A stretch of DNA of 64,000 nucleotides from Escherichia coli (GTDB taxonomy: Bacteria; Pseudomonadota; Gammaproteobacteria; Enterobacterales; Enterobacteriaceae), in the NCBI RefSeq assembly GCF_003334385.1, contig NZ_QOWN01000011.1; one strand, written 5' to 3'. The translations under genes were made by a program, and so were the position numbers. Below the pieces are notes generated by a model, which saw nothing but the letters and a program-made list of their open reading frames with translations, was not told the origin of the DNA and ran no database searches. This document shows positions 1-47,348 of the stretch, in pieces. Every line of letters begins with the position of its first letter. Positions within the stretch are counted from its first letter, which is position 1.

Positions 1-536
1 GCGCTGTTGGTCGCCAGGTAAAGATGCGGGCTTAACCGGATATCCGGCGGCAGCGCCCCCCACAGCCGCGCCAGCGTATGGCCGTCCGGCTGTGCTGCCT
101 TACCACCGCGCACCAGCCACATTGACTCACTGCGGCTGTACACCGCCTCCCCCGGCAGCAGCGGCTCAAAGTGAATGCTCCGCCCGCCGTTGTCGTTGAG
201 TATCAGTCCGTCATCACGTAGCTGTAAGCGGATATCAGAAGGCGCTTTCCAGCCGGGGCCGAAAACGCCCACCGGTGCAGGCGTCTTCGTCCGGTAGCTG
301 CTGTAGGTGCGGGAGAGAATGAACGGCAGCGGGCCGGGCAGCGCAAGGTCCGTCTCGCCGGGCAGCACCTTCGCCCCCAGCAGCGGATTTACCGGGTTGC
401 CCGAAGTCATCCCGCCCGGACACACCGAGCACGCCACGCCGGTGGGCGCGCCAATTCTTACACCTGCCGAACCCTGGACAATGGGACCGCCATACTGAGT
501 CATATCTCCCTGACGCGCCGCTGGTTTTCCGCTCAT
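1..536 (-). CDS. rhsD: Rhs-family polymorphic toxin protein, N-terminal fragment; gene continues past window start
   Basis: ATG at 534-536 on minus strand; translation MSGKPAARQGDMTQYGGPIVQGSAGVRIGAPTGVACSVCPGG... is a typical Rhs N-terminus (PAAR-like). Frame stays open to position 1, so it is absent from the complete-ORF track. Symbol assigned by position next to ybbP. Confidence 0.8.
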   Translation of the reverse strand, partial: MSGKPAARQGDMTQYGGPIVQGSAGVRIGAPTGVACSVCPGGMTSGNPVNPLLGAKVLPGETDLALPGPLPFILSRTYSSYRTKTPAPVGVFGPGWKAPSDIRLQLRDDGLILNDNGGRSIHFEPLLPGEAVYSRSESMWLVRGGKAAQPDGHTLARLWGALPPDIRLSPHLYLATNS

Positions 537-965
537 ATAAAGTGCCCTTTTAGTTATTGTTCATATCCCTGTGTTAGCAACAAAAAAAATAAAATGACAC
601 ACAAGACCAGCTAATGTATTTATATATTTTTCACATAAACTTATTTGTTCTCAATCAACAACAACTGTTATTACAGGTCACTTTCAATATTTTATTAAAC
701 TAACATTTTTAGCACAGATGAATTCATCATCAACAAATTCACTATATGGATAATATCCATTCAACGCATATGATTTATGATTTTATTAGTCTGAGTTATT
801 TTTGTAGGGCTATATTTAAAATCAATAAACTCCACCGATTCAGATTAATATCAGCAATAGAAAGATAGGAAATCACCAATTCAATAACATCATCAATGAA
901 ACATATTGTAGAATTAATTTAAACAAGGCGTTCCATTCAACCAGAACGCCCCTTATTTACTCTCA

Positions 966-3380
966 TCACCCCGCAAACTGCCTGAACAGCGCCTTACCCT
1001 TAACCAGTCGCGCACCCAGCCAGCCGCCGAAAAGCGACAGCAGCAGCGCTCCGCTGCACGGCAGAACAATCCACAATCGCCAGTCTGGCTCCCACGGAAA
1101 ATCAAACACTTTCGCCTGCAACACTGCCAGCGCCGTTTCCGCACCAATTGCGGCCACCAGGCCGGAAACAAACCCAAGCATGGCGAACTCACACCACAAC
1201 GTGGTACGCAGCAGTTTTTTCCCCGCACCGAGTGTGCGCCACACCACCAGCTCCTGATGACGCTGACGCATTCCCACCTGCACCTGTGCCAGCAACAGCA
1301 ACATACCGCAGGCGGTGACCAGTACCACCATCACTTCCAGCGCCCGACTTACCTGCTCCAGCACCTGACCGACCTGTTTTAAAATCGCGCCAATATCTAA
1401 CAGGCTAATGGTCGGGAACTGGCGGTTGAGTTGTGTCAACATGCCGTTGCCATTCTCCCAGCGGAAACTGGTAAGCCAGCTCTGCGGTTGCCCGTCTAAT
1501 GCCCCTTCAGGGAAAATAAAATAGAAATTAGGCCGCAGACTTTCCCAGTCCACTTTGCGCAGGCTGGTCACTTTAGCGCGGAACTCCTGGGTATCGCCCA
1601 TAAAAGTCACGGTATCACCGAGGGCAACGTTTAAGCGTTTCGCCAGCCCCTCTTCCATCGACACTTCATCGGCTTTTGGCGGCCAGTTACCGGCGACAAT
1701 CGGATTATGATCGGGCCGCGTATTTTGCCAGGTAAGATTGAGTTCGCGGTTAAGCGCCTCATCTTCATTACCTTCTGTCGGCTTATCGTTAATCGCCGTC
1801 AGCCGCGCCCGCACCACCGGATAAAACGATTCCGGGACTATCTGATGTTCCGCAAGGAACGCTTTTAGCGGTGCTACCTGTTCTGTGGCGATGTTAATTA
1901 AAAAGTAGTTCGGGCTTTCTGGAGGTAGCTGCTGCTGCCAGCGGTCGAGCAGATCGCCACGCAACACCAGCAGCAGTGCCAGCAGCATAAAGGAGAGCGA
2001 AAATGCCGAAAGCTGACTTAACGTTGACCACGGCTGACGTAACAGGCGGCTAACCGCCAGGCGCAGAGGCAGCGATTTCAGCGTCATGCGGCGAAGTACA
2101 TTCAGCAGCATCCAGCCCAGCACACCGCACAGCAAAGCCAGTACTACCGCGCCCGCCAGCACCGCCCAAAGCAGCATGCTGCCACCCATTAATCCGGCGA
2201 GCAGCAGCACAACCACCACACTGACAATCGGCAGATAAAACTTCAGCGGCCAGACGTTCGCTACCACATCATTACGTAATACGCGTAAAGGCTGCGTTGC
2301 CAGCAACAAGCGATATGGTCGTAGCCCCACCAGCAGCGAGATGACCGTCATGGTGCCAAGCGCCCACAGCCACGGCCAGAGGCTGGCTGGCGGTAGTGCA
2401 GCAGGCAGAACGGGCTTGAGCAGCACCATCAACACGTTTTCGAACAACAGGCCTATGGCCCCACCGGTAACGGCTGAAAGCGTCAGCACCATCAACCACT
2501 GACCGACGATTAGCTTACGCAGTTGCGCTCGCCCTGCCCCCAGCGTTTTGAGGATCGCCACCAGATCGTAGCGACTGCGACAGTAATGATTCATCGCTAC
2601 CGCCACCGCTGCCACTGCCAGCAGCAAGGTCAGAAGCGCCGAAAGCAGCAGGAACTGTTGCGAGCGTTCCATCGATCGCCCCAGCGCGCCTTCGTCCTGT
2701 TCCAGACCGTACCAGCGTTGTTCGGGTTTAAGCTGAGGTAACAACCATTTCTCATAGCCGTCGAGCTGGTTCTCGTTGCCGCCGAATTTATAACGCCAGG
2801 TGACCCGACTCCCCGGCTGCACGGCTCCGGTTTTATCGACATCCGCCAGATTCATCATCAGACGCGGAGCCATCTGGAAGGGGTTAAAACCGGAATCCGG
2901 TTCCTGAATCACTTCTCCGGCAATCCGCAAGGTGGCATCGCCCACGTCAATGGTGTCGCCCGTTTTCAGGTTAAGCAGTGCCATCAGGCGTGGGGCCAGC
3001 AATACGCTGCCCGCCTGCGGTTTCAGGCCAGGGGGATTAGTTTGCAGATCGCCATACATCGGGTAGATATCATCCACCGCTTTGACGTTCGCCAGCTGCG
3101 GTGTGTCGCCTGCAAAGGTCATTGTGGCGAAAGTCAGCTGCTTGCCGACTTTCAGGCCGCGCTTTTGCGCTTCCTCCAGCCACGCTTGCGGCACTTCGCG
3201 TGAACTGCGCAACGCCCGATCGCCCGCCATAAACTCACGGCTTTGCTGGCTTAAGCCCTTCTCCATGCGATCGCTGATATTGCCCAGCGCCAGCACGCAG
3301 GCCACCGCCAGGCTTAGCGCCAGCCAGACAATTAATAGCGACGGCGAACGCCATTCGCGCCAGAACCAACGTGCAATCAT
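966..3380 (-). CDS. ybbP: ABC transporter permease with two FtsX-type domains (MacB/LolCE-like), 804 aa
   Basis: 804-aa ORF; multiple hydrophobic segments with large extracytoplasmic loops; start overlaps ybbA stop by 4 bp (operon). Confidence 0.9.
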   Translation of the reverse strand: MIARWFWREWRSPSLLIVWLALSLAVACVLALGNISDRMEKGLSQQSREFMAGDRALRSSREVPQAWLEEAQKRGLKVGKQLTFATMTFAGDTPQLANVKAVDDIYPMYGDLQTNPPGLKPQAGSVLLAPRLMALLNLKTGDTIDVGDATLRIAGEVIQEPDSGFNPFQMAPRLMMNLADVDKTGAVQPGSRVTWRYKFGGNENQLDGYEKWLLPQLKPEQRWYGLEQDEGALGRSMERSQQFLLLSALLTLLLAVAAVAVAMNHYCRSRYDLVAILKTLGAGRAQLRKLIVGQWLMVLTLSAVTGGAIGLLFENVLMVLLKPVLPAALPPASLWPWLWALGTMTVISLLVGLRPYRLLLATQPLRVLRNDVVANVWPLKFYLPIVSVVVVLLLAGLMGGSMLLWAVLAGAVVLALLCGVLGWMLLNVLRRMTLKSLPLRLAVSRLLRQPWSTLSQLSAFSLSFMLLALLLVLRGDLLDRWQQQLPPESPNYFLINIATEQVAPLKAFLAEHQIVPESFYPVVRARLTAINDKPTEGNEDEALNRELNLTWQNTRPDHNPIVAGNWPPKADEVSMEEGLAKRLNVALGDTVTFMGDTQEFRAKVTSLRKVDWESLRPNFYFIFPEGALDGQPQSWLTSFRWENGNGMLTQLNRQFPTISLLDIGAILKQVGQVLEQVSRALEVMVVLVTACGMLLLLAQVQVGMRQRHQELVVWRTLGAGKKLLRTTLWCEFAMLGFVSGLVAAIGAETALAVLQAKVFDFPWEPDWRLWIVLPCSGALLLSLFGGWLGARLVKGKALFRQFAG

Positions 3381-9395: not shown

Positions 9396-9803
9396 TCACC
9401 CTGCCCGATGATGACAGCAGCCGGAGAGATTTTCGATAATCGGGCAGTCGGCGCTGTCATCGCCAGGGCAGGCATTCGCCAGTGCCAGCAGCTGGTCGCG
9501 CATGGATTGCAGCTCCTCAATGTGTCGTTCGATCTCCGCCACCTTCTCCAGCGTGCGCCGTTTGACGTCGGCGCTGTGCCGCTGCGGGTCGTTAAACAGA
9601 TTCACCAGCTCGCCGCTCTCTTCCAGGTTAAAGCCCACCTGCCGTGCCTGGCGCAGTAAGGTCAGTTCGTTGAGATGCTGCTGCGTGTAGGTGCGATAAC
9701 CGTTTTCGCTGCGCATCGGCGGCGTCACCAGCCCCTTCTCTTCATAGAAGCGAATGGCTTTGCTGGTCAGGCCGGTAATTTTTGCTACATCGCTGATGTT
9801 CAT
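9396..9803 (-). CDS. cueR: MerR-family copper-responsive transcriptional activator, 135 aa
   Basis: [28 protein letters not shown]; C-terminal [10 protein letters not shown] metal-binding loop; stop codon directly abuts ybbJ stop. Confidence 0.93.
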
Positions 9804-9927
9804 CGTTCGCGCAACGCCTCCTGTGCTTTGTTAAAGGGTTTCAACAGATATTCAAGCACGTTTTTTTGCCAGTGCGAATATCGACCGCCACCACAATAAT
9901 ACAGGAAGTACTGCGCACAGAGAGATG

Positions 9928-22261: not shown

Positions 22262-22353
22262 AAAATATGTAGGCATGATAAGACGCGCCAGCGTCGCATC
22301 AGGCATCGAGAGCCAAATGCCAGATGCGGCGTGAACGCCTTATCTGGCCTACG
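22262..22353. repeat. REP element pair between convergent ybaL and gsk
   Basis: gcctgatgcgacgctggcgcgtcttatcatgcctaca and gccagatgcggcgtgaacgccttatctggcctacg palindromic units. Confidence 0.85.
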
Positions 22354-29772: not shown

Positions 29773-31704
29773 TCAAATGGGGCGGATACTTTCTTCATCC
29801 AGCTCCGCATCGAAGAACCGACGCAGGGTCTGAATATTATTATCCGCAATAATGGACTCGCGCGCCTGCGCAAGTTTTTCTTCGTATATCGCCTGACGCC
29901 ACTCCAGCGGCGTACGCACCGCGGGATTATCATCTTCAACGATAGTCAGTTCAACCGTTGAACCTTTTAACATGCTCAACGCTTCAGCCAGTTTTTGCTG
30001 TGCACCGCGGTTGTTCAAATGCCGCTGAGAGGAGCGCAAATGCAGACATACTGCGTTGTCGCTCTCCTCTTTCCAGGCATTTAACGCCACCTGTTCGACC
30101 AGTTTTGGTAGCGAAAGTTGGCTCACCTGTGCCGCCCACGGGTCGCGCTCAATGGCTTCTGCCGCTAGCTTCGCCGCCAGTTCCGGCGTTTTTTCATGTT
30201 CCAGCGCTTTTTTCAGCGCCTTCGGCGTGGCGACCACTTCTTTTTGCTGCATCACCGGAGTGGTCGCCTTCCAGCGATACGCTTCTTTTTTGGCTGGCGC
30301 TTTTTCCAGCGCCGATGGCACCGGACGCGCCTGAACGCGATCGGTGACCGAAGCCAGTCTTTCCAGCGCAGCGTTATTCACCGGCCGCGCGCGGGTAGCG
30401 GCTGCCGGTTCACTCTTTTTTGCTTTGGTTGCTCCCTGCACGCGCTGCAACTGCTGGCGCGCCGCCAGCACCTGGCTGGTGGTTTCCGGGAGCGGTACAG
30501 TCGGTGCCTGCTGCGGCGCTGATTGCGGTTGCGGCGGCACCTGGGTTGGCGTCATTACTGCCGTTGGCGCGACGGGTGCAAAGGACTGTCGTGGCACTTC
30601 TGGCTCAGGCAGCGGCATACGCGGATGGAATGCCAGCGCGCGCAGCAGCGTCATCTCAACGCCCATGCGACGGTCCGGCGCATACGGTAATTCTTTGCGA
30701 CCAATCAACAGCGTCTGATAGTAAAGCTGAATATCCGTCGGCGGTATGGTGCGCGCCAGTTCACGCATCCGCAGCTCGATGGCGGCCATGTCGTTGCCAA
30801 GTGCAGCAGGCGAAAGTTGTACCATCGCAATACGATGCAACAGGCCGAGCATTTCCACCAGCAACGCTTCCCACTCGATACCACGGGCAGCGGCTTCATT
30901 AATCAGCGCCATTACGCGCTCGCCGTTGGCCTCGACCATCGCTTCAACCAGCGACAGCGCCTGATCGTCGTCAAGCGTACCCAGCATCGCACTGACCGCC
31001 TGGGTTGAAACCTGGCCGTCACCGCTGGCAATCGCCTGGTCGGTCAGACTTAAGGCATCTCGCAGGCTGCCTTCAGCGGCGCGTGCCAGCAATTGCAGCG
31101 CCCGCGGCTCGTGAGCGATATGTTCTTCGTTGAGGATGTGCTCAAGCTGATGGCGAATTTGCTCGACATCCAGCGCCTTGAGATGAAATTGCAGACAGCG
31201 TGACAAAATCGTCACCGGCAATTTCTGTGGATCGGTCGTCGCCAGCAGAAACTTAACGTGCTCCGGCGGCTCTTCAAGGGTTTTTAACAGTGCGTTAAAG
31301 CTGTGGCGCGACAGCATATGCACTTCGTCGATCAGATAAACTTTGAAACGACCACGCGCCGGAGCGTACTGGACGTTATCCAGCAGGTCGCGGGTATCTT
31401 CAACTTTGGTGCGCGAGGCGGCGTCGATTTCAATCAGATCGACAAAGCGCCCCTGCTCGATTTCACGACAGTTATCGCACACGCCGCACGGCGTCGCGGT
31501 AATGCCGGTTTCGCAGTTTAGCCCCTTCGCCAGCAGTCGGGCGATAGAGGTTTTTCCGACGCCACGGGTGCCGGAAAAAAGATAAGCATGATGAATACGC
31601 CCTAACGACAAGCCGTTCGCCAGTGCGGTCAGCACATGTTCCTGGCCGACGACGTCAGCAAAGGTTTGTGGGCGCCATTTTCGGGCTAAGACCTGATAAC
31701 TCAT
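29773..31704 (-). CDS. dnaX: DNA polymerase III tau subunit (gamma produced by frameshift), 643 aa
   Basis: AAA+ clamp-loader motifs (GTRGVGKTS P-loop, SRC motif) plus tau-specific C-terminal domains. Confidence 0.96.
   Translation of the reverse strand: MSYQVLARKWRPQTFADVVGQEHVLTALANGLSLGRIHHAYLFSGTRGVGKTSIARLLAKGLNCETGITATPCGVCDNCREIEQGRFVDLIEIDAASRTKVEDTRDLLDNVQYAPARGRFKVYLIDEVHMLSRHSFNALLKTLEEPPEHVKFLLATTDPQKLPVTILSRCLQFHLKALDVEQIRHQLEHILNEEHIAHEPRALQLLARAAEGSLRDALSLTDQAIASGDGQVSTQAVSAMLGTLDDDQALSLVEAMVEANGERVMALINEAAARGIEWEALLVEMLGLLHRIAMVQLSPAALGNDMAAIELRMRELARTIPPTDIQLYYQTLLIGRKELPYAPDRRMGVEMTLLRALAFHPRMPLPEPEVPRQSFAPVAPTAVMTPTQVPPQPQSAPQQAPTVPLPETTSQVLAARQQLQRVQGATKAKKSEPAAATRARPVNNAALERLASVTDRVQARPVPSALEKAPAKKEAYRWKATTPVMQQKEVVATPKALKKALEHEKTPELAAKLAAEAIERDPWAAQVSQLSLPKLVEQVALNAWKEESDNAVCLHLRSSQRHLNNRGAQQKLAEALSMLKGSTVELTIVEDDNPAVRTPLEWRQAIYEEKLAQARESIIADNNIQTLRRFFDAELDEESIRPI
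30410..30421 (-). other. dnaX: dnaX programmed -1 frameshift site (A AAA AAG, then GAG TGA in -1 frame) producing the gamma subunit
   Basis: Plus strand shows CTTTTTT at 30415-30421, the reverse complement of AAAAAAG; on the mRNA the -1 frame reads AAA AAA GAG TGA; a GC-rich stem-loop (CCGGCAGCCGC…GCGGCCGG) follows. Confidence 0.85.
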
Positions 31705-47234: not shown

Positions 47235-47348
47235 GGGTGGGGGCCCTGCCAGCTACATCCCGGCACACGCGTCATCTGCCTTGGCTGCTTCCTTCCGGAC
47301 CTGACCTGGTAAACAGAGTAGCGTTGCGGGAGAACCAACAGAGCCCCC
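47235..47348 (-). ncRNA. ffs: 4.5S RNA (signal recognition particle RNA), 114 nt
   Basis: Minus strand reads GGGGGCTCTGTTGGTTCTCCCGCAACGCTACTCTGTTTACCAGGTCAGGTCCGGAAGGAAGCAGCCAAGGCAGATGACGCGTGTGCCGGGATGTAGCTGGCAGGGCCCCCACCC, the 4.5S RNA sequence including the conserved SRP domain IV GGAA tetraloop region. Confidence 0.93.

Follow-up and report, generated by a model that had tools for sequence, protein, structure and literature searches.

The rhsD gene is one of the five Rhs elements of Escherichia coli K-12, a set that was described decades ago. In K-12 it (rhsD/b0497, product WP_000014739.1) is accompanied by ybbC, ylbH and ybbD and adjoins ybbP, the same locus as the one considered here. 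The definition of Rhs elements in E. coli K-12 began in 1984 (PMC2935791). The O157:H7 counterpart of this gene, a ybbP-linked Rhs (z0651-type, WP_000014801.1), lies in an island with the same flanks as in the K-12 type, and it is identical to RhsD at 1183 of 1261 core positions and at 174 of the first 178 residues. The two differ at the C-terminus: the main tip of the O157:H7 protein is a 142-aa SAA-like tip, which the K-12-type locus holds only as an orphan, and the O157:H7 locus is without the 1.2-kb cassette composed of a DUF4329 tip and ybbC.

Among the homologues with solved structures, the best match to RhsD is Tse5 of the Pseudomonas aeruginosa H1-T6SS (PA2684; 8cp6), with E 7e-122 for full RhsD and E 2e-17 for the fragment of it analysed below. 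Processing of Tse5 yields three parts, namely an N-terminal fragment of 47 residues, the shell (P48-L1168) and the toxin, with the K47/P48 site determined by N-terminal sequencing (PMC10684867). Its leader is PAAR-like and required for secretion, and residues 48-124 form a DUF6531 plug that anchors the leader inside the shell (PMC10684867, PMC9637101); C-terminal cleavage is essential for killing. RhsD and Tse5 are alike in the 47-residue leader, the PVNP junction, the DUF6531 plug, the YD shell and the DPxG...DPxG protease motif, but the tip of Tse5 is a pore-former whereas that of RhsD is of the DUF4329/Tox-JAB-2 type. They also differ in gene context, a VgrG of its own being encoded with Tse5 but not with rhsD; in the literal PAAR tetrapeptide, which is present in the RhsD leader and absent from that of Tse5; and in the residue preceding the cleavage position, K for Tse5 and N for RhsD. 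RhsA of P. protegens (7q97, E 6e-86) and Rhs1/Tre23 of Photorhabdus (7pq5, E 2e-41) resemble RhsD in shell, plugs and autoproteolysis at the C-terminus; however, they possess a long N-terminus with a full PAAR domain, prePAAR, transmembrane segments and Eag chaperones, and RhsD has none of these four. The BC components of Tc toxins (YenC2, TccC) and the teneurins have a YD-repeat shell and an Rhs-associated core like those of RhsD (E 1e-6 to 1e-27), but belong to other delivery machinery and another context, and are without a PAAR-like leader.

Here we analyse a stretch of E. coli DNA of 64,000 nucleotides (the window), which opens inside such an element: positions 1-536 are the start of rhsD, a classical Rhs (rearrangement hot spot) gene of E. 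coli. A sequence-only reading had placed the conserved 5' end of an Rhs gene on the minus strand from position 536, and the analysis bears this out. From 536 to the window edge the minus strand runs through 178 codons from an ATG without a stop, translated as MSGKPAARQGDMTQYGG...; the reverse-complement translation of window 1-536 reads MSGKPAARQGDMTQYGGPIVQGSAGV..., its open frame leaving the window at position 1, and the protein encoded on the minus strand of 1-536 opens with MSGKPAARQGDMTQYGGPIVQGSAGVRIGAPTGVACSVCPGG.... The start ATG at 536-534 is the first start codon past an in-frame TGA (563-561), and a Shine-Dalgarno-like AAGGG lies 8 nt 5' of it, at 549-545. Only one of the six frames in window 1-536 is free of stops, the remaining five having 2-7 each. 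The fragment has 65% GC (GC3 73%), compared with 52% for the window as a whole and 28% for the spacer upstream. Searched on its own, the fragment aligns to the NCBIfam profile RHS_core (NF041261) with residues 1-178 on profile positions 1-178 of 1261 (E 1.1e-115), and residues 46-123 match the Pfam family DUF6531 (PF20148) over its full length (model 1-74 of 74, E 2.5e-19); the Rhs match is far above chance. Plus-strand open reading frames of 40-63 aa within 1-536 were considered as well and were taken to be chance frames in GC-rich DNA antisense to a well-supported gene. The fragment thus represents the 5' 12.5% of rhsD (codons 1-178 of 1426, plus 2 bases), annotated as WP_000014739.1 in identical genomes. 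The gene is rhsD itself, already known, and there is nothing new in it.

The neighbours of the fragment on the same strand are ybbP and ybbA, then tesA, ybbO, cnoX, fetB and fetA. The first of these, encoding an ABC-transporter permease of 804 aa (966-3380, minus strand), is the core-genome flank that marks the locus as rhsD and lies outside the Rhs element. A 1500-base query covering the 3' end of ybbP, the spacer and the fragment is 100% identical to the ybbP/rhsD loci of many complete E. coli genomes, and strain MARGA_4 and K-12 strains are near-identical to the window over a 25-kb query. Over all 64 kb, MARGA_4 differs from the window by 10 substitutions and one 1-bp indel, with no differences in 1-959. 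The differences lie at 1854, 14055, 18115, 26489, 29529, 42700, 46508, 51527, 53871, 56191 and 61198 (10 substitutions and one 1-bp deletion), and at the first five of them the window has A where MARGA_4 has G or C. A run of eight T at window 582-589, 46-53 bp upstream of the rhsD ATG, is a run of nine in K-12 MG1655; this is the sole difference from K-12 MG1655 found in window 1-1500 and the only one at rhsD, and window 1-536 is identical to K-12. The T9 run is also present in C600 and J53, judged by span length. From the rhsD start codon to the right end of the island described below, MARGA_4 and K-12 MG1655 are identical to each other. By these alignments, we take the window to be part of a K-12-like E. 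coli chromosome. Between ybaT and cueR, at window 9800-9897, the annotation of the matching genomes has a short pseudogene that is frameshifted and truncated at its N-terminus.

Of 5426 complete E. coli genomes, 3762 contain the 536-bp 5' end, in up to 8 copies and at a median of 3, and the conservation of the Rhs N-terminus that had been claimed from the sequence alone is evident from this distribution. Paralogues are up to 100% identical to rhsD over these 536 bp, and the fragment could on that account be assigned to rhsA, rhsB, rhsC or a vgrG-linked copy instead of rhsD. However, the homology of the Rhs paralogues to the window begins exactly at the rhsD ATG, and the fragment is joined without a break to the upstream spacer and ybbP, just as in annotated rhsD loci. 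Synteny with ybbP rules out the identity with another paralogue, to which we attach next to no probability, and establishes the identity of the gene as rhsD.

By homology with Tse5, the window would contain the whole leader, the whole plug, the predicted processing site and about 55 residues of the shell. The leader, residues 1-47 (window 396-536, minus strand), has the length of the Tse5 N-terminal fragment and includes the literal P5-A6-A7-R8. Against the canonical PAAR proteins 4JIV and 9RCE, its residues 2-29 align with the third repeat alone (E 0.008), and the Pfam family PAAR_motif (PF05488) scores below threshold (E 0.05 over 19 residues). With one repeat matched, a sub-threshold Pfam score and 47 residues before the plug, a canonical three-repeat PAAR domain was rejected, and PAAR-like, of the Tse5-NT type, is the accurate label for the RhsD leader. 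The alignment with Tse5 starts at P48, where RhsD reads PVNPLLGAK and Tse5 reads PVNPMLGSK at the start of 8cp6 chain B, and cleavage of RhsD at N47/P48 (GN/PVNPLLGAK; window 393-398, minus strand) is predicted from homology to the K47/P48 site of Tse5. The N-terminal DUF6531 plug that would close the Rhs shell spans residues 46-123 (window 168-401, minus strand; PF20148; phmmer against 8cp6_B, E 2e-17). It is followed by what are probably the first beta-shell strands, residues 124-178 (window 3-167, minus strand), where the alignment with the Tse5 shell extends to residue 168 and matches to RHS_repeat begin only at residue 209. The class of effectors that depend on prePAAR and Eag chaperones was also considered. 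Where the prePAAR motif is AARxxDxxxH, RhsD reads AARQGDMTQY, with Y in place of H; no hydrophobic or transmembrane segment is visible on inspection of residues 1-178, and there is no DUF1795/Eag chaperone gene upstream of rhsD at the locus. On the motif, the transmembrane segments and the chaperone gene, membership in this class was rejected.

We inferred the sequence past window position 1 from near-identical relatives, namely MARGA_4 (locus L002) and K-12 MG1655 (locus L003). Extension upstream, as the sequence-only reading had proposed, carries the frame to 1426 aa (WP_000014739.1) in both genomes without an early stop, through the core with its YD repeats to the boundary motif. The frame is intact also in strain 720632. 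Full RhsD scores 2788 bits on RHS_core, for which the cut-off is 2000. YD repeats are absent from the part inside the window, and RhsD of MARGA_4 has about 14 Pfam RHS_repeat matches between residues 209 and 961 and 7 TIGR01643 YD_repeat stretches; a motif scan for YDxxGRL gave 8 strict and 14 loose matches. Further along, the Pfam family RHS is matched at residues 1155-1190 and the Rhs-associated core (TIGR03696) at 1181-1258, and in the near-identical genomes, beyond the window, an aspartyl-protease motif of the form DPMG-x18-DPMG occupies residues 1232-1257. The boundary motif PLQQIDPMGL, at residues 1249-1258, leaves a tip of 168 residues. The GC content falls from 60-70% in the Rhs core to 32-39% in the tip and ybbC, a combination of GC-rich core and AT-rich tip that is the pattern described for Rhs elements (PMC2935791). 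All testable defining features of the Rhs family are present in rhsD, and the architecture of the gene at this locus is established by these matches. If identity, architecture and proposed mechanism are taken together, full RhsD as found in the nearest genomes is very probably a polymorphic toxin.

The 178 codons could also be the head of a pseudogene, if rhsD were broken just past the window edge in the source genome by an insertion sequence, a frameshift or a deletion. Copies of IS1 do occur at this locus in some E. coli genomes, in the stretch between ybbP and rhsD or in the region of the tip and ybbC, and even the closest genome is still 10 substitutions and 1 indel away over 64 kb. Against this, the frame is itself uninterrupted in the window, the 1426-aa frame is intact in all of the nearest genomes looked at (MARGA_4, K-12 MG1655 and strain 720632), and the tip together with ybbC is at least 99% identical, with at least 80% covered, in 1854 genomes. 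We regard a broken rhsD as very unlikely.

That the toxin tip and its immunity gene lie beyond the window edge had also been anticipated, and in MARGA_4 and K-12 MG1655 the 168-aa tip and then ybbC are found there. The RhsD tip is a DUF4329 domain (PF14220, E 3e-37). Zhang et al. named this family Tox-JAB-2 and described it as having a JAB/deaminase-like fold, as a proposed nuclease and as paired with Imm-NTF2-2 (PMC3482391); in later papers Tox-JAB-2 is an RNase by prediction, its activity and substrate not being established there. In RhsD an HTH at residue 1356, followed by SSSD, fits the H[ST]H...S..D signature of Tox-JAB-2, and the tip is predicted to be a metal-dependent nuclease or RNase. 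The next gene, ybbC, encodes 122 aa that match Imm-NTF2-2 (PF15631, E 7e-26), and judged by this family assignment it is the putative NTF2-fold immunity gene for the RhsD tip. With respect to experiments on the RhsD tip, YbbC or Tox-JAB-2, we found only bioinformatic mentions in the literature. The tip and ybbC occur, as a single copy with at least 99% identity, in 1896 genomes. Because the ybbP-rhs junction is present in 2853 genomes and this tip with ybbC in 1896, about one third of the ybbP-linked rhs genes would carry another tip. From the near-identical genomes, the tip and the immunity gene that go with the fragment in the window can be identified with good confidence.

Alignment with the empty site of Nissle 1917 defines the element that contains rhsD. 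In Nissle 1917, ybbP is followed by a REP-like spacer of about 140 bp and then by convergent mnmH. Relative to this arrangement the MARGA_4 locus contains an island at L002 36042-43328, that is, 7,287 bp corresponding to window 959-1 plus 6.3 kb past the edge, and the boundary at L002 36041/36042 is window 960/959. In genomes without the ybbP-rhs junction the match to the window likewise breaks off near 956-960, shortly beyond the stop codon of ybbP. These boundaries define an accessory island of 7.3 kb between ybbP and mnmH, with rhsD at its left end; it replaces the REP-like spacer of roughly 127 bp seen in rhs-less strains. Since the island boundary falls at window 960/959, the spacer at 537-959 (minus strand) is part of the accessory element, as its AT-rich (28% GC) upstream part. 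Features of this spacer include the ribosome-binding site at 549-545, the T8 run at 582-589, a weak sigma-70-like site at 654-626 and a hairpin with a T run at 952-925. The hairpin and T run (925-952), which come after the stop codon of ybbP, look like a terminator of ybbP and lie inside the island; rhs-less strains have REP-like sequence there. In a scan of window 1-1200, promoter-like sites numbered 2 and terminator-like sites 3, which does not exceed the expectation from shuffled sequences; we claim no promoter. In several E. coli genomes IS1 is inserted in the stretch between ybbP and rhsD (the region of window 537-965) or in the rhsD tip and ybbC, and the locus is a recurrent IS1 target. 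A search of the whole window against Rfam at gathering thresholds returned nothing in 1-1500. Elsewhere in the window there are three matches to naRNA4 (REP/BIME-derived) in 15033-15211 and 22272-22349, two of them scoring on both strands, and matches to sroB/ChiX (16509-16592), SRP RNA (ffs, 47244-47340) and the dnaX frameshift element (30376-30440).

Past ybbC, the island in the relatives continues with an orphan core-end that carries a 142-aa tip (ylbH type), and with ybbD, the remnant of a second Rhs 5' end and a fragment of a transposase. The remnant, at L002 42701-42796 near the right end of the island, matches window codons 2-33 over about 32 codons, inside an alignment whose mean column identity is 78%; it has ATT in place of ATG, and is followed by the transposase fragment (ylbG). 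The island therefore finishes with the start of a further rhs gene that was lost. As for ybbD, the putative orphan immunity gene, it seems to be divided in two, at L002 41844-42104 and 42137-42334: in an NCBIfam model of 163 positions (PRK14710.1-3), positions 1-85 are matched by an 86-aa open reading frame and 99-163 by a separate one of 65 aa.

The O157:H7 locus accounts for the orphan tip. In O157:H7 F8798 the ybbP-linked Rhs has 1398 aa, and its 142-aa tip is identical at 141 of 142 residues to the orphan tip of the K-12-type locus; YbbD comes next, with 85 of 86 residues identical, and the whole island has 1.2 kb less than that of the K-12 type. The comparison establishes that the tip has been replaced at this locus: because the orphan tip of the K-12 type is the main tip of O157:H7, with the same YbbD and a shorter island, the K-12-type locus is the O157-type one with a DUF4329-tip/ybbC cassette added, by which the older tip was displaced. 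This is what Jackson et al. (PMC2935791) proposed in their model of C-terminal displacement.

By analogy with Tse5, the 47-residue PAAR-like leader would mount RhsD on the VgrG spike of a type VI secretion system. The DUF6531 plug and the YD-repeat beta-shell would enclose the toxin, the aspartyl-protease motif (DPxG-x18-DPxG, ending in PLQQIDPMGL) would cut off the 168-residue DUF4329/Tox-JAB-2 tip, and NTF2-fold YbbC would confer immunity to it. In the O111:H11 strain 8D, an rhs gene with 100% identity to the window over its first 536 bp lies 68 bp after vgrG, and this position of an identical 5' end supports the view of the rhsD leader as a VgrG/T6SS module. At rhsD itself there is no adjoining vgrG, hcp or Eag chaperone gene, the upstream neighbour being ybbP, and the 64-kb window contains no T6SS genes. 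E. coli K-12 is devoid of T6SS genes (PMC4604203), and RhsD may therefore be undeliverable in a K-12-type host. We infer VgrG binding, N47/P48 cleavage, toxin activity and delivery through a T6SS; the source strain itself may or may not be capable of delivery.

One may ask whether rhsD is, in a K-12-like lineage, a silent passenger without a delivery route, retained for the immunity conferred by YbbC and as one of the dispersed repeats available for recA-dependent rearrangement of the chromosome, from which the family takes its name. In addition to the missing T6SS and vgrG genes, this would be in keeping with the 420 bp upstream at 28% GC, which may be typical of silenced foreign DNA, with promoter-like sites that are no commoner than in shuffles, with the several copies of the rhs 5' end per genome, and with the discovery of Rhs elements through unequal crossing-over between rhsA and rhsB (PMC2935791). 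However, a 4.3-kb frame that is intact and a tip that is near-invariant in about 1900 genomes argue against long-term decay, and the identical leader is vgrG-linked in other strains. We consider a silent passenger possible but doubtful, and it would in any case concern the host context and leave the encoded product unchanged. Because a leader of 47 residues with a single PAAR repeat is too little for a three-repeat cone, it is also conceivable that the one-repeat leader caps VgrG unconventionally, for example with three Rhs leaders forming one cone. Alternatively, a T6SS-independent role might explain why rhsD and ybbC stay intact and near-invariant in K-12-like lineages that lack a T6SS; both suggestions strike us as highly improbable. 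The reading that we favor remains that of a T6SS-delivered polymorphic toxin, in which mounting and processing would proceed as outlined above.

In practical terms, the edge of the window cuts an annotated gene at codon 178, and window 1-959 lies within a 7.3-kb accessory island. The architecture of rhsD matches the current model of Rhs toxins and carries little weight as a discovery. As for what it offers to the study of the family, the locus is a clean worked example of C-terminal displacement.
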